Assembly (NCBI GenBank): GCA_001772985.1
Contig: MEVN01000034.1
Location: 1-34,741 of the forward strand
Source of the DNA: a candidate division WWE3 bacterium RIFCSPLOWO2_12_FULL_36_10
Lineage (GTDB): Bacteria; Patescibacteriota; WWE3; UBA101185; UBA10185
Direction of reading: 5' to 3'
Length of the DNA stretch: 34,741 nucleotides
Part shown: positions 2,105-34,586 of the stretch, in pieces
How the letters are laid out: each line of letters begins with the position of its first letter
How positions within the stretch are numbered: position 1 is the stretch's first letter
The notes under the pieces: model-generated
What the model was told of the DNA's origin: nothing
The model's input: the letters and a program-made list of their open reading frames with translations, nothing else
The model's database searches: none
Made by a program: the position numbers and the translations under genes

Positions 2105-3088
2105 TTAAATAATGAAGATAGATCCAAAGTTTCCTGTTTCTAATTCTTTATAAGTCCAAAGTTTATCTTTAGTTATTCTAAATTCATAAACACCCTTAGG
2201 AGCTATTTTTACACCAAGCTCAAATTCAGGGAATTTTTGTATCGTTTCAACAAGTGTAATTTCTTTATCTGTAGTATTTTTCCATCTAACCAGCTGTCCT
2301 GAATCGGCATCGGGTTCTTTAGGACTAAAACCATCTTTTGTGTAAGTAATTTCTAAGACTTTGTTACTAACATCCGGTTTTTCCGTTGTATTAGTTGTTT
2401 CGTTTTTATTGCCATCGGTTCCTGAAGATGTACTTTCTGTTGTTTTTGGAGGTTCTAATCTTAATATCTCCGCTTCAACTTGATCAATTAAATCTTTTGT
2501 AGTTTGCAAAACCATCTTTTTTCCATTTAAATAAAAAGTCGGAGTTGAATTAATTCCAAGTTTATTACCATCTTTAACATCAGCACTTACAATTGAAGCA
2601 AAGGTTCCGTTTCTAAGATCAGACGTAAATTTATCGGTATCAAGTCCAAGCGCCTTTGCGTATTTGATTAAATCCTCTTCGGAAAGAGCTTGCTGTTTAT
2701 ACATGAGATCGTAATATTCCCAGAACTTTCCTGACTCGCCAGCAATTTGGGAAGCTTCGGCAGCTTTTTTTGCATATTTGTGTTGGGGAAGCGGGAAATG
2801 TCTGTAGGCAAATTTTAATTCGTTTGCATGGTTTTCTAAAATGTAGCTAACAACAGGATAAAAGGTTTGGCATGCCGGACATTCAAAATCCCCAAACTCA
2901 ACCAAGGTAACGGGAGAATCTTTTGGCCCTTTTATGTAGGTGTGGTCGGTAATTAGCAAATCTTCACTTACAGGCTTTAATGAAGGAGAGCTGTATTTTC
3001 CTTGAGATGCAATTATTATCCCAACAAAAATCAATATCGTAACAAAGCCTATTATAAATATCGGTGCATTTCTTTTAATTATGTTCAT
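2105..3088 (-). CDS. Membrane-anchored DsbA-family thiol:disulfide oxidoreductase with an extra C-terminal beta-rich domain
   Basis: N-terminal TM helix, then a thioredoxin-fold CxxC (FECPACQ), then a Thr/Ser/Asn-rich linker and a ~100-aa C-terminal domain of unknown function. Confidence 0.8.
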   Translation of the reverse strand: MNIIKRNAPIFIIGFVTILIFVGIIIASQGKYSSPSLKPVSEDLLITDHTYIKGPKDSPVTLVEFGDFECPACQTFYPVVSYILENHANELKFAYRHFPLPQHKYAKKAAEASQIAGESGKFWEYYDLMYKQQALSEEDLIKYAKALGLDTDKFTSDLRNGTFASIVSADVKDGNKLGINSTPTFYLNGKKMVLQTTKDLIDQVEAEILRLEPPKTTESTSSGTDGNKNETTNTTEKPDVSNKVLEITYTKDGFSPKEPDADSGQLVRWKNTTDKEITLVETIQKFPEFELGVKIAPKGVYEFRITKDKLWTYKELETGNFGSIFII

Positions 3089-4062: not shown

Positions 4063-4929
4063 TCATGACGCCCTATTTTCTGATCCAAAAAGCTTAATCT
4101 TTCCTTCAACTATTTTTTGTACTTCCTCTATTGCGCCTGGAGTTATTTTATAAATTGCAACTTCCGAAGTTTCGTTTAAAGATCTTTTTAACGCGTTTTT
4201 AAAGGCAACTCTCATTTCGGAATTAATATTAATTTTTACAATTTTCCCAATTTTTATTGCCGTCATAATATCTTTGTTATCAATTCCCGATCCTCCGTGT
4301 AGAGATAAAAAAGTATTTGGAAGCAGATTTCTAATTTCTTCAAGCACGTCAAGTTTTAAACGTTTTTCTGTTGAATAAAGGCCGTGAAGATTTCCAAAAA
4401 AAGCTGCGAATGTATCTATACCTGTTTCATCAACAAATATTTTTGCTTTTTTAGGATCTGTGTATAAAGTTTTATCAAGCACCTCATCCGGTTTTTCTTT
4501 TGTATGATCCGCGGAGCTTCCCTGAATGTGATCCATTTCTCCCTCTACAATGATACCTTTTGCATGACACATTTTTACAATTTCCTTTGCTATCTTTAAA
4601 TTTTCGTCATATGGAAGTTTGCTTCCGTCAAAATGAATATAATCAAATCCTGCATTTACAGCCTCTTCGCATTCCTCAAAGCTTTCAGAATGATCAAGGT
4701 TTAAAATTATAGGAATATTAAGTTCGTTTCTATAATCTTTAATTAAGTCTACAAGCTGGGTTTTGCCTATGTAATCAACCTCTCCCTTTGACGCTTCAAT
4801 AATAATAGGGGAGTTAAGTTTTTTTGCAGCTAAAGTTATGGCCTTTAGGGTTTCTATATTTGCAGCGTTAAAGGCTCCAATTGCGTAACCTTCTTTTTGT
4901 GCTTTTAATAAAATCTCTTTAGTATTCAT
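4063..4929 (-). CDS. fba: Class II fructose/ketose-bisphosphate aldolase
   Basis: Has GYAIGAFN near the N-terminus, LDHSES and LHGGSGI. The start is placed at the internal Met (MNTKEILLKA) because the longer ORF would overlap the upstream kinase gene. Confidence 0.85.
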   Translation of the reverse strand: MNTKEILLKAQKEGYAIGAFNAANIETLKAITLAAKKLNSPIIIEASKGEVDYIGKTQLVDLIKDYRNELNIPIILNLDHSESFEECEEAVNAGFDYIHFDGSKLPYDENLKIAKEIVKMCHAKGIIVEGEMDHIQGSSADHTKEKPDEVLDKTLYTDPKKAKIFVDETGIDTFAAFFGNLHGLYSTEKRLKLDVLEEIRNLLPNTFLSLHGGSGIDNKDIMTAIKIGKIVKININSEMRVAFKNALKRSLNETSEVAIYKITPGAIEEVQKIVEGKIKLFGSENRAS

Positions 4930-4939
4930 TGTAAGTTCA

Positions 4940-5977
4940 TTATAAATTGAAAATTGTGAATTCATTCCCCTTTATTACTATTTCTTCAATTTCTTTTTTT
5001 GTTTTTAGTCCTGCGGTTGAGCCAATATATCTTGTGACTCCACAAGAATTTATAGCTCCCCAGTTTAACGCCTCTTTTAAGCTTTTTTTATCATCAACCA
5101 CAAGTTCGCATATGTGGTTTGATGAAATTCCCGTTTCGCGGGAATTATAAAATAGTGCAGATAAAAATGCGGAGGCAAAAGCATCGCCGGCACCTGTTTT
5201 GTCGATTAGTTTTTTTCCATCGTCATAAATTTTTGCATAAACAACTTCGTTACCAGAACTTGCGCTTGAACCGTTTTCACCATCGGTAATTACTGTTAAT
5301 TTTGGGCCGAGTCTTTGTAATTCTTTATGTAATTTCTCAAGATCGTTTTCATTTTTTGAAAGAATTTTTTGTGCTTCCTCTAAGTTAACAAAAAGTACGT
5401 CGGTTAATTCCAATATATTTTTTATTTTCTCAATGCCCGCTTTTAAATGATAAGTTCCGGGATTAAATGCGAGTAGAACATTCTCATTCTTTTTTAAATA
5501 CTCAACCAAGTTGGCTTGAAAGCTTTCAAAGTTTTCGGGAAGCGATGAGTAATAAATCCAAAGTGGTGTTGACCAATCTATAACCTTATATTCAAAGTGT
5601 TCATGATATGAAAAAATTGTTCTCTCTCCTTTAAAGACTATTATTGAATGAACATTAGTCGGCTTGCCTGAATTTTTGATGCAATAGGTTGTATCAATTC
5701 CAAGTTTTTTAAATTCAGTTATAAACCTTTCTCCGTTTGAATCGTTGCCAAGTTGGGTATAGATTGTACTTTCAAGACCTAGGAGTTTACAAGCAGTGAC
5801 AACGTTTGGGGCATTTCCGGCTAATGTGGCGTTATAAGATTCTACCGGAATTTTGTCTGCGTAATCAAAACAAATTTTGCAATTTTTGTGGTCAATATCA
5901 CAAACTACTGAAGCGTCGTCTACTTTCATGAATTCATCAATAGAGGAGTCGCCAATTGCCAAAAGGTCAAATTTCAT
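4940..5977 (-). CDS. PfkB-family carbohydrate kinase
   Basis: C-terminal anion-hole motif DKTGAGDAFASAF and an N-terminal LLAIGDSSID. Substrate cannot be assigned from sequence. Confidence 0.8.
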   Translation of the reverse strand: MKFDLLAIGDSSIDEFMKVDDASVVCDIDHKNCKICFDYADKIPVESYNATLAGNAPNVVTACKLLGLESTIYTQLGNDSNGERFITEFKKLGIDTTYCIKNSGKPTNVHSIIVFKGERTIFSYHEHFEYKVIDWSTPLWIYYSSLPENFESFQANLVEYLKKNENVLLAFNPGTYHLKAGIEKIKNILELTDVLFVNLEEAQKILSKNENDLEKLHKELQRLGPKLTVITDGENGSSASSGNEVVYAKIYDDGKKLIDKTGAGDAFASAFLSALFYNSRETGISSNHICELVVDDKKSLKEALNWGAINSCGVTRYIGSTAGLKTKKEIEEIVIKGNEFTIFNL

Positions 5978-6166: not shown

Positions 6167-7153
6167 TTACCTTTCTGAAATTAATTTTTTAACTTCCATA
6201 ATTATATGATCAATTCCAAGTCCATATTTTTTAATTAACTGCTCGTAGGTTCCTGATTCCCCAAAAGAGTCACAAATTCCAAGTCTCTTAATTTTAACAG
6301 GATATTTTTCCGAAAGCATCTCACTTACTACTCCGCCTAAGCCTCCACTTATTTGATGTTCCTCAATGGTTATTACTCTTCCAGTTTTTCTTACTGAGTC
6401 TAACATCGTTTTTTCATCTAAAGGTTTTATTGTACAAGAGTCAATTACCTCACATTTAATTCCGTATTTCATATTTAACTCATACGAAGCTTTTAATGCC
6501 TCATAAATAATAGGTCCCGCGCAAATAATAGTCACATCATTTCCCGTCATGAGAATTTGTGCTTTTCCAATTTCAAAAGGTGAATCTTGGGTTCTAAAAA
6601 CCGGAGTCTTTTCTCGCGTCAATCTTATATAAACAGGCCCTTTATAATTTGCGGAGGCTATTGTTGCTTTTTTAGCTTGTTCGTAGTCGGAAGGTACTAA
6701 AACAACCATGTTTGGCAGAACCCTCATTAACGCGATGTCCTCTAAAGCTTGGTGTGTAGCTCCATCTGGTCCTACAGACAAGCCTGAATGTGCTCCTATA
6801 ATTTTTACATTGGCCCTTGAATAGGCTATTGAAACTCTAATTTGTTCCCAGTTTCTCCCCGGATTAAATACCGCATAAGAAGCTATAAAAGGTATTTTTC
6901 CACTAATCGCAAGTCCGGCAGAAATTCCAGCCATATTTTGTTCAGAAACGCCCGTTTCGAAAAATCTTTTTGGAAATTTATCTTTGAATTTGTTACTTCT
7001 TGTTGATTCTGTAAGATCGGCACAAAGCACCAAAACATTTTCGTCTTTTTCTCCCGCAATTACAACGCCATCTCCAAAACCGTCTCTTGTGGGCAGTTCA
7101 TTAAGTTTTGTAGTAAAGATATGATGGTTTAATTTTGCTTCATCTGCAATCAT
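6167..7153 (-). CDS. tkt: Transketolase, C-terminal (pyrimidine-binding + C-terminal domain) subunit
   Basis: PTRDGFG, FETGVSEQNMAG, GATHQALEDIALMR and EEHQISGGLG are typical of split-transketolase subunit B. Confidence 0.9.
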   Translation of the reverse strand: MIADEAKLNHHIFTTKLNELPTRDGFGDGVVIAGEKDENVLVLCADLTESTRSNKFKDKFPKRFFETGVSEQNMAGISAGLAISGKIPFIASYAVFNPGRNWEQIRVSIAYSRANVKIIGAHSGLSVGPDGATHQALEDIALMRVLPNMVVLVPSDYEQAKKATIASANYKGPVYIRLTREKTPVFRTQDSPFEIGKAQILMTGNDVTIICAGPIIYEALKASYELNMKYGIKCEVIDSCTIKPLDEKTMLDSVRKTGRVITIEEHQISGGLGGVVSEMLSEKYPVKIKRLGICDSFGESGTYEQLIKKYGLGIDHIIMEVKKLISER

Positions 7154-7673
7154 CGAATTCTTTTATTAACTCAAAGCCGATTTTTTTGTCGGTTTTGTTT
7201 ATAGAAACTAAGTCAGCTGTAACATTTTGCTGTTGTTCAATTTTACAGGTATCGCCGGGTTTTAATTCACGCGCTAAGACTGTTATTGTGTTGTCTTCCT
7301 TATTCTTGTAAACTTTTTTTACTTTTGTTTCGTACCCGGTTGTGTTAAAAGTTTTAGAAGAAATTCCGATTAAGTAAACTTTATCAAAATTAATTTTATC
7401 TTCTACTTTTAGTTGTCTAGTTTCGTCGATTGTTTTTAAGAAGGTTTCAAGTTCCTTTTCGTTATGTATTATACTTCTTTGCTTTTCTATTACTTTATTT
7501 GTGGTAAAAACAGTTGGAAATCCCTTAACTCTGGTAACTTCAATCGTATTATCATTCAAGCCAAGAATTTTAATATCGCCTTTAGTTAGTAAATAACCCG
7601 CGCCAATAATTAGAATAACGATTAAAATAATCGGAAGGATGCTCATATAAAGCGTGTAAGTTTTTTTAGTCAT
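7140..7673 (-). CDS. Membrane-anchored hypothetical protein inserted between the two transketolase subunit genes
   Basis: The start is taken at MTKKTYTLY, followed by one TM helix (ILPIILIVILIIGAGYLL). The C-terminal part (GISSKTFNTTGYETKVKKVY...TVLARELKPGD) loosely resembles PrcB-type beta-barrel domains, which is unverified. Overlaps both flanking tkt genes. Confidence 0.5.
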   Translation of the reverse strand: MTKKTYTLYMSILPIILIVILIIGAGYLLTKGDIKILGLNDNTIEVTRVKGFPTVFTTNKVIEKQRSIIHNEKELETFLKTIDETRQLKVEDKINFDKVYLIGISSKTFNTTGYETKVKKVYKNKEDNTITVLARELKPGDTCKIEQQQNVTADLVSINKTDKKIGFELIKEFDDCR

Positions 7674-8529
7674 GTTCGCTCCTAATTCGGCCCGCAAGTG
7701 TTCGGAGTTCCTTTAAAGCTTTCTCTGCCTGTACTCTATTGGGAGGCTTGCCGTGCCATTCAAATTTATACTGCATAAAATCAACATCTTTTCCCGGAAT
7801 TGTATGAGCAATTATAACAGTTGCTCTTTCAAAGATTGCTTTAGCATTATCGCAGGCATTTATGATTTCTTCAACATTATGTCCGTCTATTTCAAGAACG
7901 TGCCAGTTAAAGGCTTCAAGCTTTTGTCTTAAAGGTTCTAACGGCATGATGTCTTCGGTATATCCGTCTATTTGAATGTTATTTCTGTCTATTATCCAGG
8001 TTAAATTGTGTAGATGGTTGTTTCCTGCAAACATGGCAGCTTCCCAAATTTGTCCTTCCTGAAGCTCCGCGTCACTTCCAACGCAATAAACTCTATGAGT
8101 TTGGTCGTTTAATTTTGCAGAAAGTGCCATTCCGATTGCTTGAGAAAGGCCTTGGCCTAAGGGACCGCTAGTGTTTTCAACTCCAGGAGGTTCGTTTATA
8201 TGTGGATGGCCTTGTAAACGAGTGCCAAGTTTTCTTAGAGTTTTTAATTCTGATACAGGAAAAAAACCTCGGTGTGCAAGTGTTGCATATAAAATTGGAC
8301 AAATATGCCCTGCGGACAAGACTAATCTATCTCTATCTGGCATTTGTGGATTTTTTGGATCAATATTTAAAATGTGAAAATATAAGGAAGCAAATATATC
8401 TGCGGTGCCAAGAGGGCCGGCGGAATGTCCGGAGCCGGCTTCTAAAAGCATTTCAATGACGGATTTTCTAAGTTCTATTGCAACTTCTTCTATTTTGGCG
8501 ATTTCTTCGCTGTGTGAATGTTTGGGCAT
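7666..8529 (-). CDS. tkt: Transketolase, N-terminal (thiamine-diphosphate-binding) subunit
   Basis: GSGHSAGPLG, LSAGH, GSLGQG-like GPLGQGLSQAIG, and GDAELQEGQIWEA (GDG-type TPP motif). Confidence 0.9.
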   Translation of the reverse strand: MPKHSHSEEIAKIEEVAIELRKSVIEMLLEAGSGHSAGPLGTADIFASLYFHILNIDPKNPQMPDRDRLVLSAGHICPILYATLAHRGFFPVSELKTLRKLGTRLQGHPHINEPPGVENTSGPLGQGLSQAIGMALSAKLNDQTHRVYCVGSDAELQEGQIWEAAMFAGNNHLHNLTWIIDRNNIQIDGYTEDIMPLEPLRQKLEAFNWHVLEIDGHNVEEIINACDNAKAIFERATVIIAHTIPGKDVDFMQYKFEWHGKPPNRVQAEKALKELRTLAGRIRSEHD

Positions 8530-8584
8530 TAGGGTGATTATACACCTAAGGCTTCACATTAGATAAGCTTAATGTACTATAAGC

Positions 8585-8613
8585 TTGACAAGGTTTGTGA
8601 ATAATGATATAAT
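8585..8613 (+). promoter_or_regulatory. Perfect sigma70-type promoter (TTGACA-17-TATAAT)
   Basis: TTGACA at 8585-8590, a 17-nt spacer, TATAAT at 8608-8613. It is preceded by TAATGTACTAT (8570-8580), which is also found upstream of the promoter at 15093. Confidence 0.6.
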
Positions 8614-8619
8614 TCCAGT

Positions 8620-9075
8620 TATGAATCGGCTACTTCCGCTATCTGGAGGGAAGTGTCATAGGAGGCGAACTGGGTCCCGTCAGCCCAATCCCGCCAATAT
8701 ACTAGTCTGTCGACTGACGGAGAGGAGAAGAAAACAAATGAAGATTTGTATTCGAGGTCCGGATTCGAGCTTGGCATGCTCGAAAAATAAGATCGTCGTC
8801 GCCATCACCGCCGGCCGGGCCGCCCAGGGTTTCTGAACCCCGCCCGTCGCCACCGAGGTCGATCATATGACATGGGTTTCGGCGTAAAATCAAACGCTTC
8901 TTTAGCCCCTGCCTTTCCGACCTCGCGCAACTCCCGTCATCCGGTTGGTTTTTCTCGCAACGACCCAGGTGGGTATGTGAAGTAATGTGAGAATGATCAA
9001 CCGAAGAAGCCACACTCACTGCACAAAGAGGATCGCAACCTTTTTGTTTGGTAGGTGTGGCTTTATCTTTTTTTA
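8620..9075 (+). ncRNA. Unclassified GC-rich structured RNA candidate (orphan transcription unit; may also carry a 32-codon sORF at 8738-8836)
   Basis: Bounded by a consensus promoter and a hairpin plus T-tract. It is strikingly GC-rich in an AT-rich window. Several helices can be drawn (see findings). ORFs on both strands translate to low-complexity junk. Confidence 0.4.
9009..9074 (+). terminator. Long interrupted hairpin plus T-tract
   Basis: GCCACAC (9009-9015) pairs with GTGTGGC (9055-9061). An inner helix pairs ACAAAGAGG (9023-9031) with CCTTTTTGT (9039-9047). This is followed by TTTATCTTTTTTT. It could also serve the convergent LOG gene. Confidence 0.55.
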
Positions 9076-9627
9076 TTTCAAATTTTCAATAAACTTCAAA
9101 ACTTCCTCTGGAGTTGAAACAATCCCACGAACTTGATCTAATTCTCCTTCTCTCATTACCATATTTTTATTTAATTCGTTTACTATATTGTGCCAAAACT
9201 CCCCGAACAAAATTAACGGCTTGCCATGCCCCGCGTGAATTCTTGAATTAGCCCAGCTCATTCCAAATTCGCTAATAGTTCCCGTTCCGCCTTTAAAAAC
9301 AATATGAACATCTGAATTTTGGAGCATTACCTTAGTTCTATCAAAATAATCGTTTGTTATTACCTCTTCATCGAATTTATTATTCTTATCCATGCCCTCG
9401 TAGTTAACATGCTCGTAAGTTGGTTGATAAGTGATTGCAAGTACTCTAGTTCCGCCATCGTGAGCACCAAGTGTAGATGCCAGCATAACTCCAGGCCCGC
9501 CTCCATTTACAATTTCGTAGCCATTTTGTCCTAGAAGTTTTGCGGTATTATAAGCATCCATAAAAACAGGATCTTTTGGTTTCCAAGAAGCACCGCCTAA
9601 AAAACAAATTCGTTTGATCTCGTTCAT
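9073..9627 (-). CDS. LOG-family (TIGR00730-type) Rossmann-fold nucleotide-binding protein
   Basis: GGGPGVM and the KGGTGTISEF (PGGxGTxxE-like) motif. Confidence 0.85.
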   Translation of the reverse strand: MNEIKRICFLGGASWKPKDPVFMDAYNTAKLLGQNGYEIVNGGGPGVMLASTLGAHDGGTRVLAITYQPTYEHVNYEGMDKNNKFDEEVITNDYFDRTKVMLQNSDVHIVFKGGTGTISEFGMSWANSRIHAGHGKPLILFGEFWHNIVNELNKNMVMREGELDQVRGIVSTPEEVLKFIENLK

Positions 9628-10253
9628 AAAAGTTCCTCATTACTAAATTTTATATATGCGTCTCTAATGTCGCTCTGATTAAACAAATGTGAACCAATTA
9701 TTACATCTCTTACACCAGTTTCTAAAACTAGCGGTAAGGTTTCTGCATCTATTCCGCCGTCAACTTGTACCGGCATTTTTGGATAGAGTTGTCTAAACTG
9801 ATTTATTTTTGCTAAGACATTATAAACAAAAGGATTACCTTGTGCTCCCGGAATTATAGTCATAAATTGAACATAATCAATTTTACTTAAAAATCTATCT
9901 AGCTTTTGTATTTCTGTTTCCGGGTTTAAAGAAAGTCCAACGATATAACCAAAATCATGACTTATATTTATGAAATCTTCAATGTAATCTTTTACTTCTA
10001 TTTGAGCGCAAATTCTACTTATATTATTAATCTTTTTTACTAAATACTGTAGTGGATTTTCTACCATTAAATGTATTTCTATTTCTGCTTTAGTTTTTAT
10101 TTCCGCAATTCGATCTATTTCTAAAAATGTTTCGCCTTTTACAAGTTTTCCATCAGCTATATCTATTTGAATTATGGTTGTAAAATCTTGGACGAGTTGA
10201 ATTTTGTTTACAACTTCCATAAAGTCTTTTTCTAAAATTCCCGGTATTATCAT
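9624..10253 (-). CDS. rpe: Ribulose-phosphate 3-epimerase-like TIM-barrel protein
   Basis: IDIADG, HLMVENP, the phosphate-binding region PGAQGNPF, and VQVDGGI. The first metal-ligand His of canonical Rpe (HxDxMDG) is Gln here (QIDIADG). Confidence 0.65.
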   Translation of the reverse strand: MIIPGILEKDFMEVVNKIQLVQDFTTIIQIDIADGKLVKGETFLEIDRIAEIKTKAEIEIHLMVENPLQYLVKKINNISRICAQIEVKDYIEDFINISHDFGYIVGLSLNPETEIQKLDRFLSKIDYVQFMTIIPGAQGNPFVYNVLAKINQFRQLYPKMPVQVDGGIDAETLPLVLETGVRDVIIGSHLFNQSDIRDAYIKFSNEELL

Positions 10254-10687
10254 TTTATTTCTTCCAATTTATTTATTCTTCTAACAAACCTTTCTTCCTT
10301 GCTAAAGTCTTTATTAAGCCAATTTTCCAGTATAATCTCAGCCTCATCTTCGCTTATATAGTTTGCCGGTAATGCTAAAACATTTGCATCATCATCGTTT
10401 CTGGATGAAACGGCATGTTCAAGGCGCCAGGACAACGCACATCTGATTCCTTTAAATCTGTTAGCTATTATACTAACCCCAACTCCGTTTTTACAAATTA
10501 GTACCGCGTTATTTTTAGGTGACTCAAGAACCTTTCTCATAACGGGAATTACGTAGTCTGTGTAATCGTCGCTTGGAATTAATTCATTTGGGCCACAGTC
10601 TTCAAATTCGATATTTTTTTGTTTAAGGAATTCAATTAACCTGCTTTTGAGTTTTAGACCGCCGTGATCCGATGTAATGTAAAGCAT
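10250..10687 (-). CDS. rpiB: Ribose-5-phosphate isomerase B (RpiB/LacAB family)
   Basis: N-terminal ITSDHGG and a catalytic-Cys segment VLICKNGVGVSIIANR. Adjacent to rpe. Confidence 0.85.
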   Translation of the reverse strand: MLYITSDHGGLKLKSRLIEFLKQKNIEFEDCGPNELIPSDDYTDYVIPVMRKVLESPKNNAVLICKNGVGVSIIANRFKGIRCALSWRLEHAVSSRNDDDANVLALPANYISEDEAEIILENWLNKDFSKEERFVRRINKLEEIK

Positions 10688-31215: not shown

Positions 31216-31983
31216 GTAATAGTAAGTGTTGCGACTTGCAAAAGTAATTTTGCAAACAAAATTGGCTAATAACGGTGGAGTCCGCCTTAGGCGGATAATA
31301 TCCGTGGGAAGTTCATATAAAAATGAACCCCGTATCGACTGATATTCTAATATGTATTGTATAATATTAGGATGAGATGCAGAGGATTTGATAGAAAAAA
31401 TATCAATAGTAAAATTCTGCATAATACGCCAACGCCTAAGATAACAAAATCCTATTTACTTGGGATTTTGCATGATGCTACAGAGAGAAAATATACTTTT
31501 AGAATTTCTCAAAAGTCTGAAGAATATATTAAATTTCTTTCACGTGGAATAGAAGAACTTGGCTATTCTGCATGGACTTACAGAGAAGGTAAAACAAGAA
31601 ACGTTTATATCGTGGAATTTTCTAAAAGGTTGTTAGAAGATGTAAATCTGGAGAATTTAGAAGATAAAAGAGATTACATTAGAGGATACTTTGACGCGGA
31701 AGGAAGCGTTCCAAAGGACTCGAATAGCAGATATTACGTTTATTTTTCCCAAAAGAATTTGAAGGATTTGAGTATATTACAATCCTACATGTTTGAGTTT
31801 GGGTTAGACTGTGGAAGAATTCATATTCCTAGTCAAAAAGTAGATCCGGATTATTTTAGGTTTTATCTACTTGGTGAATCTAAATATAAATTCGCTTCTA
31901 TAATTGGATCTTTGCATCCAAATAAATGTAACCGCCTTAGGATGAAGATATAGTCAGCACCACTAGTAATAGTGGATTAAGCG
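31216..31983 (+). mobile_element. Group I intron in 16S rRNA (inserted inside the GAAGTCGT/AACAAGG segment), carrying a homing-endonuclease ORF
   Basis: The 5' exon ends in U and the intron ends in G. The internal guide GCGACTT (31231-31237) pairs with exon AAGTCGT (31209-31215), giving the U-G pair at the splice site. The adjacent TGTT (31227-31230) can pair with 3' exon AACA (P10). Confidence 0.8.
31357..31953 (+). CDS. LAGLIDADG-family homing endonuclease (double-motif)
   Basis: Two LAGLIDADG-type motifs, YLLGILHDATE and YIRGYFDAEGSV, about 100 aa apart. Located entirely inside the intron. The true start may be a downstream Met. Confidence 0.85.
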   Translation: MYNIRMRCRGFDRKNINSKILHNTPTPKITKSYLLGILHDATERKYTFRISQKSEEYIKFLSRGIEELGYSAWTYREGKTRNVYIVEFSKRLLEDVNLENLEDKRDYIRGYFDAEGSVPKDSNSRYYVYFSQKNLKDLSILQSYMFEFGLDCGRIHIPSQKVDPDYFRFYLLGESKYKFASIIGSLHPNKCNRLRMKI

Positions 31984-32199
31984 AACAAGGTAGCCGTAGG
32001 GGAATCTGCGGCTGGATCACCTCCTTTCTGGAGAAAAAACGTATTTTGATCTTCGGATCCTTTTCTGATTTAGTCAGCAAAGACCGAATGAAAAAACAAA
32101 TACAACTCATGGGCTATTAAGCTTGTAACCCATGTGAAAGTCTGTACTCTCACGTATAGACAAAGCGAGTTCGAAGTAAGCTACAAACTTCAAATCGAG

Positions 32200-32227
32200 C
32201 ATTCTTTTCGCTTTTTGTTTCTTGAAA
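32200..32227 (+). other. 3' strand of the 16S precursor processing stem
   Basis: CATTCTTTTCGCTTT TTGTT TCTTGAAA pairs with 29788-29815. The SD of the Nudix gene begins 3 nt after it. Confidence 0.7.
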
Positions 32228-32241
32228 CTTAGGAAGTAGAG

Positions 32242-32685
32242 ATGAAAAAATCCAATAAGAAAAATAAAATAAATAATGTATGTTTAGCCGTTGTTAAAAA
32301 CAAAGACAACGAAGTTTTAATCATAAAAAGAATAATAGAAGAAGACGCTTCTGGTGGCAGAAAGCTTACTTGGGTATTTCCGGGTGGAATTGCAGACGAT
32401 CATGAAGAAAAATCAGAAGTTGCAGAACTTGAGGCTCTTGAGGAAACCGGATACAAAGTTAAGGCAATTAGAAAAATCTCAGAAAGAGATTATTCTATGC
32501 CGAATGTCCATTTGGCATATTTTGAATGTGAGCTAGTCTCGGAAGATAGAACAGAACTTTTGGATGTAGAGGAAGTAGAACAAGTTCGTTGGGTTCCGAT
32601 TGAATATTTAATGGATTTTTTTACAACTGATGTTGATCCTGTTGTTGCCAAATTTCTTGGCCTAAAAAATTATTTGCCTAAATAG
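32242..32685 (+). CDS. Nudix hydrolase
   Basis: Nudix box GGIADDHEEKSEVAELEALEETGY (Gx5Ex7-[R to L]-EALEETGY). SD AGGAAG upstream. Confidence 0.8.
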   Translation: MKKSNKKNKINNVCLAVVKNKDNEVLIIKRIIEEDASGGRKLTWVFPGGIADDHEEKSEVAELEALEETGYKVKAIRKISERDYSMPNVHLAYFECELVSEDRTELLDVEEVEQVRWVPIEYLMDFFTTDVDPVVAKFLGLKNYLPK

Positions 32686-32704
32686 CTTATGTACTTAGAT
32701 AAAT

Positions 32705-32733
32705 TTGACAGAAATACAGAAATTCTGTATTAT
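32705..32733 (+). promoter_or_regulatory. Promoter (TTGACA-17-TATTAT) with an embedded palindromic operator; predicts a leaderless antitoxin mRNA
   Basis: TTGACA at 32705-32710 and TATTAT at 32728-32733. ATG 32740 is 6 nt after the -10. The palindrome ATACAGAA-A-TTCTGTAT (32714-32730) fills most of the spacer and runs into the first 3 nt of the -10. Confidence 0.55.
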
Positions 32734-32739
32734 TGAATA

Positions 32740-32985
32740 ATGTTACAATCACCCCAAGATGAAATCATCAAGTTACAGCCTAGAGGTTTGTTGACTATAC
32801 CAAAAAAGTTTCGCAAAAGTTTGGGGCTTGAAGAAAATAGTTTGCTAAGAATACGAAAAGATCGGTGGAGATTAGTTATTGAACCGGTTCGAACTATTTC
32901 CTATTCAGTCAGAAGTTATACAGATAAAGATTTAAGCGATTTTTTTGAATTTGATGAAGAACAAACGAAAAGTCTCAAAAAATAG
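32740..32985 (+). CDS. AbrB/MazE/SpoVT-family antitoxin
   Basis: N-terminal swapped-hairpin motif KLQPRGLLTIPKKFRKSLGLEENSLLRIRKD. Confidence 0.75.
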   Translation: MLQSPQDEIIKLQPRGLLTIPKKFRKSLGLEENSLLRIRKDRWRLVIEPVRTISYSVRSYTDKDLSDFFEFDEEQTKSLKK

Positions 32986-32997
32986 GTTTTGATTATA

Positions 32998-33225
32998 ATG
33001 AAATTAGTTTATTGATTGAAAACATATTTGATTCATTTGAAACAGCTCCTAATGCAGAAACAGTAAAGAAATACCAGAAAATAGTAATTGATTTTGGAGA
33101 CGCGCATGTACTTGCTTCTTGTCACGAAGCTAAGGCAGATTTTTTAGTAACTTTGGATAAGAAACATTTATTAATCCTTCAAAATAAAATTAAATGGGTA
33201 AGGATTGTTTCTCCTGCAGAACTTT
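32998..33225 (+). pseudogene. Decayed PIN-domain (VapC/PIN_3-like) toxin gene: frameshifted start, shortened body, 3' end running into a tRNA gene
   Basis: ATG 32998 opens MKLVY and then a stop. A 1-nt shift continues LIENIFDSF...DAHVLASCHEAKADFLVTLDKKHLL...VRIVSPAELL, which is the PIN C-terminal signature. The body is only ~75 aa where ~130 aa are expected. The listed ORF stays open only by reading through the antisense tRNA. Confidence 0.5.
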
Positions 33226-33302
<77 letters not shown>

Positions 33303-33313
33303 AGTTTCTGTAA

Positions 33314-33342
33314 AGTATACTACCATATTTACTTTTACTTAA
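33314..33342 (-). promoter_or_regulatory. Candidate promoter for the minus-strand tRNA-Ile (TTAAGT-17-TATACT)
   Basis: On the minus strand, TTAAGT at 33342-33337, a 17-nt spacer, and TATACT at 33319-33314, 11 nt upstream of the tRNA 5' end. Confidence 0.45.
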
Positions 33343-33379
33343 TAGTACTGTAGTCTCATAGCAACAAAAGGAGGATCGG

Positions 33380-34213
33380 ATGGGAAGGACAATGGATCAC
33401 AAAACAATGGACGTTTTAGTTGGTTCATCCGAGATAGATCTTTTTCAGGCGGGCGGGAAAGGAATGACAAAAGCGGATATTTGTTCCGCGGCGCAGAAGC
33501 GTTTGATCAACGGTCCTAAACTTACCGGTGGTGAGAAGGCGAGATTCTTTAACCTTGTGCTTTCCAAAGCAGGGGCTGTGAAGGTTGCGGGACGTTTTTA
33601 TCATGGGAATTTTATTCCGACAAAACTTACGCCTATCAAGGAAGTTTCTTTGGTAAGAAAAGGTCCGGCTACGGAGGCAGAACGTTTGGCTGCCACGGCC
33701 GTTCAAAAAGAACTTATTTTGCGGACAACCGCCGGGCTATCAATGTCTAGAGCCGAGATGATTGAGATAGCTTGCAAGAGCATGGGTATTAGTCCCGATA
33801 AGTTCCCGCTTGTTCGTTGGTGGACTTTAGCGGCTTTAATCAGTTGCAAAAATAACGGGGATAATACTTATAGGTACTTTTCACTGTCTGAGCGTACTGT
33901 TAATGCCAGAAAAGCTTTGGCAGAACAAAGGCAATTAAGTGAAAGAATGAGAAAGGCCACCGAAAAAGCTGCAAAAAGGGCTAATAAGGAACCGGCTTTG
34001 GCTCATCCCCAAGCTTTCTCTGGTTTGGGAGTTTCTCCTCCGGATTATGTTTTTGAGGCTGAGAAAGGTAAGGAGATGGAGGTCACGGTTGTCGGGGCGA
34101 AGGGTGGCGCTAGTATTACAACCAGAGCCCATAAGGTTATCATTTTCCTTGTTGTTCCAATGTTGGTTGTAGCATGTTTTTTTGGCGCAGTTCTGCCCTA
34201 TCTGCCACATTAG
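33380..34213 (+). CDS. Hypothetical protein (277 aa) with a C-terminal TM anchor
   Basis: Strong SD AAAGGAGG 6 nt upstream. GC-richer than its surroundings. C-terminal hydrophobic helix IIFLVVPMLVVACFFGAVL. Followed by a strong terminator. Confidence 0.55.
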   Translation: MGRTMDHKTMDVLVGSSEIDLFQAGGKGMTKADICSAAQKRLINGPKLTGGEKARFFNLVLSKAGAVKVAGRFYHGNFIPTKLTPIKEVSLVRKGPATEAERLAATAVQKELILRTTAGLSMSRAEMIEIACKSMGISPDKFPLVRWWTLAALISCKNNGDNTYRYFSLSERTVNARKALAEQRQLSERMRKATEKAAKRANKEPALAHPQAFSGLGVSPPDYVFEAEKGKEMEVTVVGAKGGASITTRAHKVIIFLVVPMLVVACFFGAVLPYLPH

Positions 34214-34237
34214 CCGTTTGTTTTCACAAGTTTGCAA

Positions 34238-34272
34238 ACCGACAGTTCATCCCACGACCTGTCGGTTTTTTT
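34238..34272 (+). terminator. Rho-independent terminator
   Basis: ACCGACAG (34238-34245) pairs with CTGTCGGT (34259-34266), followed by TTTTTT. Confidence 0.8.
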
Positions 34273-34273
34273 G

Positions 34274-34302
34274 TTGACACAACATTTAGTTAGTGATATG
34301 TT
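34274..34302 (+). promoter_or_regulatory. Candidate promoter for tRNA-Ala/23S (TTGACA-17-TATGTT)
   Basis: TTGACA at 34274-34279, a 17-nt spacer, TATGTT at 34297-34302. It lies immediately after the terminator. Confidence 0.5.
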
Positions 34303-34420
34303 ACCCATACGGAATGGGAATAACCTTCATAGAAGCTTAGGCTTCCGAACTCGAAGCTCTGGTTTCCAAATTATTTTAATAATATATAATGTGGCCCAAA
34401 TGGGTAAAGGTGCTCAAAGG

Positions 34421-34496
34421 GGGCCCTTAGCTCAGTTGGTAGAGCGCGGCGTTTGCATCGCTGAGGTCAGGAGTTCGAACCTCCTAGGGTCCACCA
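34421..34496 (+). tRNA. tRNA-Ala (anticodon TGC), CCA encoded
   Basis: Folds as GGGCCCT-TA-GCTC-AGTTGGTA-GAGC-G-CGGCG-TTTGCAT-CGCTG-AGGTC-AGGAG-TTCGAAC-CTCCT-AGGGTCC-A-CCA. The G3:U70 identity pair is present. Confidence 0.95.
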
Positions 34497-34586
34497 GAAT
34501 ATTATTAATAAAGCACTTTGAAAACTGAACAAGATCGTGCAAAATGTTTGATAGCATTTTGGCATTGATCTAAAAGTCAAATGTAT

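Follow-up and report, generated by a model that had tools for sequence, protein, structure and literature searches.

A strain-specific, GC-rich candidate transcription unit in a variable gap between the LOG and transketolase genes of a WWE3 bacterium

We analysed a 34.7-kb stretch of DNA (the window) from the candidate division WWE3 bacterium RIFCSPLOWO2_12_FULL_36_10, a member of the Katanobacteria within the candidate phyla radiation (CPR). The N-terminal transketolase protein encoded in the window is 100% identical to the NCBI entry filed under this name. The subject of this report is a GC-rich element on the plus strand (8585-9075), which sits in a 543-nt gap between two minus-strand genes, the N-terminal transketolase gene (tkt-N, 7666-8529) and a LOG/TIGR00730-type gene (9073-9627). 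An earlier note, made from the sequence alone, had headlined this element as an unclassified structured RNA that possibly carries a small open reading frame (ORF). All positions and motifs that it listed proved to be exact. We find that it has a promoter, a terminator and a start codon in leaderless geometry, that its sequence is specific to one strain, that the slot it occupies is variable among relatives and that its body folds no better than shuffled sequence. In kind it is an ordinary orphan transcription unit; the sequence is new.

Our leading interpretation, which we hold at somewhat less than even confidence, is that the element encodes a lineage-specific orphan small-protein mRNA in a slot of fast turnover. 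The unit would then be evolutionarily young and confined to its lineage. Initiation by RNA polymerase at the perfect promoter would fall at about 8620-8621, and the AUG at 8621 would form the 5' end of the transcript and be read leaderless to give a very basic orphan peptide of 71 amino acids. An internal Shine-Dalgarno (SD) motif and the AUG at 8738 could additionally yield the C-terminal 32 amino acids, and transcription would stop at the hairpin at 9007-9063 and its U-run. The high G+C content would stem from the origin of the inserted DNA, whether foreign or newly arisen, and not from selection for RNA folding. Transcription and translation of the unit, the role of the peptide as its functional product and the foreign or de novo origin of the DNA are inferred. 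The orphan-mRNA reading is favoured because the ATG at 8621 matches the leaderless convention of the genome, because the SD-led ATG at 8738 lies in the same frame and because the body carries no excess structure; it is favoured also because the corresponding gaps of relatives hold unrelated ORFs on the equivalent of the plus strand and no Rfam family.

Promoter, terminator and candidate start codons

The plus-strand sigma-70 promoter (8585-8613) consists of TTGACA (8585-8590), a 17-nt spacer and TATAAT (8608-8613), and a TG stands just ahead of the -10 hexamer. It lies precisely where the earlier note had placed it, is the sole 12/12 match within 7500-10500, and stands back-to-back with the tkt promoter. 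The closing hairpin and T-tract of that note were likewise confirmed. The intrinsic terminator (9007-9080, plus strand) pairs imperfect 25-nt arms (9007-9031/9039-9063) with a folding energy of -32.1 kcal/mol (z = -6.7); the U-run behind them, UUUAUCUUUUUUUAUUU, overlaps the LOG stop codon. The terminator thus has the stable GC-containing hairpin and the directly following U-run of a Rho-independent terminator. On the minus strand the hairpin is weaker (-25.2 kcal/mol) and has no U-run. A simple terminator scanner did not call the hairpin because its loop and stem limits are narrower. No gene lies downstream of the unit on the plus strand. The very strong promoter and the strong intrinsic terminator together support the proposal of a discrete plus-strand transcription unit.

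The -10 hexamer is followed by seven nucleotides (tccagtt) and an ATG at 8621, which is the geometry of a leaderless mRNA, and on this layout the predicted transcription start coincides with the A of the ATG or is adjacent to it. This codon opens a candidate leaderless ORF of 71 codons (8621-8836, plus strand) whose product (MNRLLPLSGGKCHRRRTG...AAQGF) would be very basic. The first seven nucleotides of the predicted transcript are unpaired in the local fold.

The same arrangement is common in the window. The start of tkt-N (8527-8542, minus strand) is leaderless, with TATAAT at 8542-8537, seven nucleotides (cacccta) and the ATG at 8529-8527. A TATAAT-like -10 element followed after 6-8 nt by ATG also occurs at 1435, 10687, 14654, 15028, 18103, 21094, 22619, 29379, 31372 and 32740, among others. 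Few genes of the window have a clear SD motif (26579, 26934 and 33380). Judged by the layout of upstream regions across the window, many genes of this genome start as leaderless mRNAs. The small gene at 32740 (81 amino acids, MazE/AbrB-like) has the same geometry as the unit, TTGACA-17-TATTAT-N6-ATG. The window contains 49 TATAAT hexamers, nine of which are followed by an ATG at 6-8 nt, and all nine of these ATGs, the unit's included, open ORFs of at least 71 codons. At the local composition the probability of an ORF of at least 71 codons is 0.088, and that of an ATG at such spacing, estimated from base frequencies, is about 0.055, which gives a joint probability of about 0.005. Because many genes of this WWE3 genome are started without a leader, it is advisable to look for an ATG 6-8 nt past the -10 element of any perfect promoter in it before calling an RNA gene.

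Within this frame lies a purine-rich run that is SD-like by sequence (GGAGAGGAGAAG, 8719-8730, plus strand), and the 16S rRNA gene of the window carries the anti-SD sequence CCUCC at ~32020. The run precedes the ATG at 8738, which opens a 32-amino-acid small ORF (MKICIRGPDSSLACSKNKIVVAITAGRAAQGF, then a stop; 8738-8836, plus strand). This small ORF had been described by the earlier note with the correct SD and start positions, but the in-frame upstream ATG at 8621 was missed, so that what was described is the C-terminal part of the 71-amino-acid ORF. The ATG at 8738 lies inside a small, weak AU hairpin (8734-8749; -9 kcal/mol for a 46-nt segment). A second small ORF of 37 amino acids (8872-8985, plus strand) has a GAGG 12 nt upstream; it is weak, possibly fortuitous, and matches no family.

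Folding of the body and searches for relatives

The contrast in composition between the element and its surroundings, which had drawn attention to it, was borne out. The window has a G+C content of 36%, and G+C exceeds 52% only in the 16S gene and in the stretch 8700-8950, where it peaks at 62%. This plus-strand GC-rich core (8700-8950; 56-62% G+C compared with 36% for the genome), which includes CCGCCGGCCGGGCCGCCCAGGG at 8808-8829 as an example, runs ~115 nt past the stop codon of the 71-amino-acid ORF.

The high G+C content is not accompanied by unusual folding. When the terminator was left out, the body (8620-8998, 379 nt) folded at -125.1 kcal/mol compared with -120.6 +/- 5.3 kcal/mol for dinucleotide shuffles (z = -0.85), and 18 of 100 shuffles folded as well; its minus strand, also with the terminator removed, gave z = 0.01. 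The full unit was more stable than shuffles (z = -4.05 on the plus strand, -1.99 on the minus strand), but the plus-strand value is due to the terminator hairpin. The seven helices drawn in the earlier note are all perfect Watson-Crick pairings but stand at chance level; of perfect 7-bp helices the body as a whole holds seven, against 4.5 +/- 2.8 in shuffles. Similarly, the alternative pairing proposed there exists as described, with CGAGGTC at 8753 and 8854 and its complement GACCTCG once, at 8919, but is expected by chance in a sequence of this length at 55-60% G+C.

No known RNA family was recognized. At the gathering threshold, Rfam 15 found only rRNA and tRNA in the whole window and nothing in the unit. 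At E<=10 over 8450-9200 it returned only junk microRNA-type hairpin matches on the terminator, the best with 28.7 bits against a threshold of 72, and models of RNase P RNA, tmRNA, signal recognition particle (SRP) RNA and 6S RNA gave no match even at this level. ARAGORN found two tRNAs and no tmRNA. These scans agree with the earlier by-eye judgement that no hallmark of a known family is present, and the Rfam scan of the region, which had been proposed as the check that could reveal a housekeeping RNA, gave no confident match to one. Rfam also found no family in the LOG-tkt gaps of nine relatives' loci. Two resemblances noticed by eye were dropped: one to tmRNA (GGAUUCGAG and an A-rich run before GUC GUC GCC), which has no model support and no T-arm, and one to the P4 strand of RNase P RNA (GAGGUCCGG), which has no model support.

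A length of ~450 nt, G+C richness and a strong promoter are typical of housekeeping RNAs, and a highly diverged RNase P, tmRNA, SRP or 6S RNA might be missed by Rfam in CPR bacteria. Besides the failure of every model at E<=10 and of ARAGORN, such an RNA would be expected to be conserved, yet at this site the closest relatives either carry unrelated sequence or lack an insert, and nhmmer found nothing similar in 110 loci. We regard this explanation as essentially excluded.

Relatives of the element were sought, as the earlier note had suggested, with nhmmer and blastn, and none of the collections searched held a diverged homologue. nhmmer of the element against 104-110 fetched loci returned only identical copies, and blastn against phages and plasmids had no match. 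Translated searches with the 71-amino-acid ORF and with a 105-amino-acid minus-strand frame of the element (tblastn) found nothing in plasmids; fuzzy scans of viral, genome and metagenome collections with back-translated peptides of the 105-amino-acid frame returned only the element itself. No homologue emerged from a protein word search with the latter frame or from a 29-mer scan of viral contigs. The search of genome contigs with tkt-N yielded no more than six CPR loci, most of the rest being from Firmicutes and archaea. The element is present on contigs from independent assemblies (L001-L008 and L023/L024), in all cases 100% identical. As judged from these sequence matches, the element is that of one strain only among the collections searched. 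Single-nucleotide polymorphisms (SNPs) between same-strain contigs cluster at the ends of the contigs, ascribed to mosaic assembly, and the unit has none, so they carry no information on selection.

In four contigs of the strain (L002, L006, L007 and L023) all differences from the window fall in dense SNP blocks at the contig ends, which suggests strain-mosaic assemblies or recombination tracts. L002 differs from the window by 115 mismatches, of which those listed are all below 6250, and L023 by 40, within 7742-7890. One transketolase entry (P0006) appears only 87% identical because of such blocks.

The headline of an unclassified structured RNA is not supported. For that claim the result is mainly negative, as the folding signal disappears without the terminator and the element lacks relatives. 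Of the generic marks of a conserved structured non-coding RNA (ncRNA), homologues were not found and excess folding stability is absent. The earlier note had itself named a lack of conservation or covariation in related genomes as a refuting result, and this is what we observed, with only 100%-identical copies and no homologues in relatives. As far as the collections searched reach, sequence comparison refutes the claim of a new structured-RNA family. Large GC-rich bacterial ncRNAs such as OLE, GOLLD, ROOL and raiA were found as GC-rich intergenic regions in AT-rich genomes, and the unit resembles them as a GC-rich, ORF-poor intergenic island of several hundred nucleotides in an AT-rich genome. 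However, those families rest on many homologues with covariation, whereas the unit has no homologue, no Rfam match and no unusual stability. To call a new class of structured RNA, it is not sufficient that an island is GC-rich and ORF-poor and has a textbook promoter and terminator.

The gap in related lineages and the competing readings

The gap lies inside a pentose-phosphate cluster that is conserved in relatives, with LGT-VKOR-RpiB-RPE-LOG on one side and tktN-x-tktC-PfkB on the other. The segment 8552-9072 is strain-specific and variable. In three relatives (L009, L010 and L011; transketolase proteins 93% and 91% identical, with 93% for L009 and L010) similarity is gone 22 nt upstream of the tkt ATG, and for L009 and L010 it ends at 8551; both of these carry a different 105-amino-acid gene in the gap, on the tkt strand. 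At the other end, in a relative with a LOG protein 88% identical (L105; 82% identical in DNA along 2 kb of the operon), the similarity breaks off precisely at the LOG stop codon (9073). Across 13 related WWE3 lineages the gap ranges from 73 to 1119 nt and holds no homologue of the element.

The contents of the gap differ between lineages. The shortest, in L106 (73 nt), has no insert, and that of L026 (172 nt) has the promoter TTGACG-16-TAGAAT. In L108 the 317-nt gap (2683-3000) encodes a 40-amino-acid hydrophobic transmembrane peptide (MNGLPKRQKVLAFFYSVLLILGLLFGIISSLFLPGMYFNR) on the operon strand behind a strong AAGGAGG SD. The gap of L025 (495 nt) has a perfect TTGACA-16-TATAAT promoter at the equivalent place, a GC-rich, ORF-poor body with one 61-amino-acid ORF that lacks an SD, and a terminator. 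L012 (518 nt) has an SD and a 58-amino-acid Pro/Lys-rich ORF, and L107 (657 nt) has TTGACA-17-TAAATT, an SD with a 23-amino-acid ORF, a GC-rich tail and a terminator. Longer ORFs occur in L018 (675 nt; 162 amino acids, multi-transmembrane, SD, G+C at third codon positions (GC3) of 0.79; 4453-4941 on the minus strand of the locus), L027 (831 nt; 188 amino acids) and L013 (1119 nt; 91 and 58 amino acids).

None of these occupants appears related to another. The gaps of eight relatives, compared in full, are not homologous to one another; nhmmer of seven gap sequences against all loci gave self-matches only; and nine gaps share k-mers as often as shuffles do, the SD motif AAGGAGA excepted. Aligned pairwise, the window and L025 show only noise outside the promoter. 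Curated libraries of defence, phage and protein families had no match to the relatives' slot proteins. The ORFs on the plus-equivalent strand in L012, L013, L018, L025, L027 and L107 (23, 58, 58, 61, 91, 162 and 188 amino acids) are mutually unrelated. An SD or SD-like motif precedes them in all lineages but L025. Counted over the gaps examined, six relatives have an ORF led by such a motif (AAGGAGA in three), which lends indirect support to the suggestion of a small ORF in the unit. The earlier note had reasoned that an intact protein gene at the syntenic position in relatives would mark the unit as a decayed gene. L018 and L027 do have intact genes there, but these are unrelated to the element; tblastn of slot proteins of L018, L013 and L014 against the gap of the window found nothing, and we rejected a decayed copy of a relative's gene.

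Two regularities run through this variation. G+C in the gap is above that of the flanks in seven of the eight relatives measured, the exception being L026. In the window, L025, L026, L027 and L107 a plus-strand promoter occurs at a distance of 55-115 nt from the tkt end of the gap, and the bodies behind it are unrelated. This promoter, recurring in five lineages, is the one feature of the slot that, by sequence, looks conserved. In L025 the tkt start reads TATACT-7-ATG.

The 40-amino-acid peptide of L108 resembles a type I toxin or a small membrane protein. The 162-amino-acid ORF of L018 lies in a context of 40-42% G+C, belongs to no Pfam or PHROG family, is without a match among plasmids and looks recently acquired.

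Among known systems, leaderless orphan small-protein mRNAs are like the unit in that the -10 element lies seven nucleotides before the ATG, a layout shared by tkt and at least eight other genes of the window, and in that the unit's product is short, very basic, without homologues and of atypical composition, on a transcript with its own terminator. The unit differs from them in having no codon-position signal, a GC-rich 3' region of 170 nt and an internal in-frame SD-led start. These differences include several of the observations that weigh against a small-protein mRNA. The G+C content of the 71-amino-acid ORF is flat over the three codon positions (0.50/0.56/0.56, compared with 0.55/0.37/0.30 in tkt), and the G+C peak lies mostly 3' of its stop codon, so that the 170-nt region is not explained by the peptide. 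AlphaFold2 gave a low-confidence model of the product (mean predicted local distance difference test score, pLDDT, of 51). Pfam, PHROGs, NCBIfam and PADLOC hold no family for the candidate ORFs, and phmmer of the 71-amino-acid ORF against 1.84 billion representative proteins found no true homologue. The earlier note had seen no credible protein in the gap; it had overlooked the 71-codon ORF, but all contigs examined lack a called gene in the gap, and an exact look-up of six candidate ORF products in a collection of 15 billion proteins found none of them. Finally, the unit closest in architecture, that of L025, reads TCCAaTTAcG after its -10 element and thus has ACG where the window has ATG.

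The phmmer search returned two matches with apparently significant E-values (P0241, E = 5e-20; P0242, E = 1e-5), which we rejected as tandem-repeat pseudo-proteins (58 amino acids x17 and 94 amino acids x7.5). The E-values look significant because HMMER sums the scores of the copies; a single repeat copy scores ~24 bits against the query, which is chance at a database size of 1.84 billion. Both entries are evidently translated from tandem-repeat DNA and show how queries that are short or of low complexity can mislead.

Several of the same observations could be accommodated by a lineage-specific regulatory ncRNA, or a dual-function small RNA (sRNA) with a small ORF, that acts via base-pairing or protein binding and is too young or too fast-evolving for homologues to show. 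Such an RNA would fit the perfect promoter and strong terminator with no plus-strand gene downstream, a G+C enrichment comparable to that of rRNA in a 36% genome and a gap without a called gene. L025 and L107 likewise combine a promoter, a GC-rich body with few or very short ORFs and a terminator, and the body of L025 folds at z = -2.05. Dual-function sRNAs such as RNAIII/hld, SgrS/SgrT and SR1/SR1P are also stand-alone transcripts of a few hundred nucleotides with a strong promoter and terminator and a short SD-led ORF, and the unit does contain a short ORF with a ribosome-binding site (GGAGAGGAGAAG at 8719-8730, ATG at 8738). In contrast to the unit, however, which has neither conservation nor excess folding, these RNAs are conserved within genera and have defined structures and targets. 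The body of the unit folds like shuffles with helices at chance level, the absence of homologues leaves no covariation and there is no Rfam match, the nine slot sequences share no motif beyond shuffles, and the ATG stands exactly where the leaderless genes of this genome start. We consider a regulatory RNA rather unlikely.

We give about the same modest weight to the view that the body is non-functional cargo, a foreign GC-rich fragment or a decayed gene that entered an insertion-tolerant gap and is transcribed from a conserved divergent promoter; the promoter, and not the transcript, would then be what matters. The range of gap lengths and the mutually unrelated contents are consistent with this, as are the sharp breaks in similarity at the LOG stop codon and the tkt -10 element and the recurrence of the promoter in five lineages in front of differing bodies. 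The GC3 of 0.79 in the L018 occupant, within a context of 40-42% G+C, is typical of acquired DNA. Within the unit itself, the overlapping frames 8621-8836 and 8791-8985 resemble an ORF of ~120 codons split by a frameshift, and the flat codon-position composition would also fit. Yet no donor or parent gene appeared in the searches made, and terminal repeats and target duplications were not found. Neutral DNA in a genome of 36% G+C is expected to decay towards A+T, whereas the occupants of seven of eight relatives exceed their flanks in G+C, and a perfect 12/12 promoter together with an intact -32 kcal/mol terminator suggests that selection has maintained them.

Variable intergenic slots and insertion hotspots share with the LOG-tkt gap the conserved syntenic flanks, the sharp loss of similarity and the unrelated occupants in each lineage. 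They differ from it in that the unit is only ~0.5 kb, that there is no integrase, tRNA or flanking repeat and that a recurrent promoter lies inside the slot. No terminal inverted repeats, target site duplications or flanking repeats were found, and no transposase or integrase gene lies nearby, which leaves the marks of a mobile element absent. An integron attC site was considered for the terminator hairpin, and by eye the core sites (RYYYAAC/GTTRRRY) did not fit. A type I toxin-antitoxin pair likewise finds no counterpart in the unit: 8585-9075 contains no hydrophobic ORF, and the unit has no convincing opposite-strand promoter.

A broader, speculative idea, to which we assign a low probability, is that the LOG-tkt gap of WWE3 bacteria serves as a 'cradle' for new genes or RNAs, with a strong promoter that diverges from the leaderless one of tkt and is retained across lineages. 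If so, GC-rich DNA arising or captured behind this promoter would be expressed and could give rise to lineage-specific small proteins or dual-function RNAs, the products might face diversifying pressure in these episymbiotic bacteria with reduced genomes, and the unit of the window would be one newborn gene or RNA. The conserved operon junction, which holds an unrelated unit in each lineage, almost always GC-richer than its flanks and mostly with small ORFs, offers a compact natural model of how reduced CPR genomes gain and lose orphan genes.

Neighbouring genes and the rRNA region

Transketolase is split into N- and C-terminal genes in the window (6167-8529), and the same arrangement is found across WWE3 relatives (L001, L013, L018 and L108). 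Between the two halves lies a conserved ORF of ~175-185 amino acids (7140-7697) with only a weak PrcB_C match. On the other side of the gap, RPE and LOG are separate, overlapping genes in the window, L018 and L108, and are fused into one ORF of 398-404 amino acids in L012 (2283-3482), L013 (2685-3881) and L107 (1129-2343).

The 16S rRNA gene of the window (29817 to ~32028) contains an insertion of ~750 nt near its 3' end (31235-31983). The Rfam alignment of the gene ends at 31250, and its true 3' end (AACAAGGTAGCCGTA...GGATCACCTCCTTT) lies at 31984-32028. Within the insertion is the gene of a LAGLIDADG homing endonuclease of 193 amino acids (31372-31953, Pfam E = 8.5e-13) with a leaderless TATAAT-N6-ATG start. 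Insertions of this kind in rRNA genes are a known trait of CPR bacteria. The 16S-23S spacer is ~2.5 kb long (32029-34586) and contains protein genes, namely a NUDIX gene (32242-32685), the 81-amino-acid MazE/AbrB-like gene (32740-32985) and a 277-amino-acid ORF without a family (33380-34213). Two tRNA genes also lie in the spacer, tRNA-Ile(GAU) (33226-33302, opposite strand) and tRNA-Ala(UGC) (34421-34496, plus strand).

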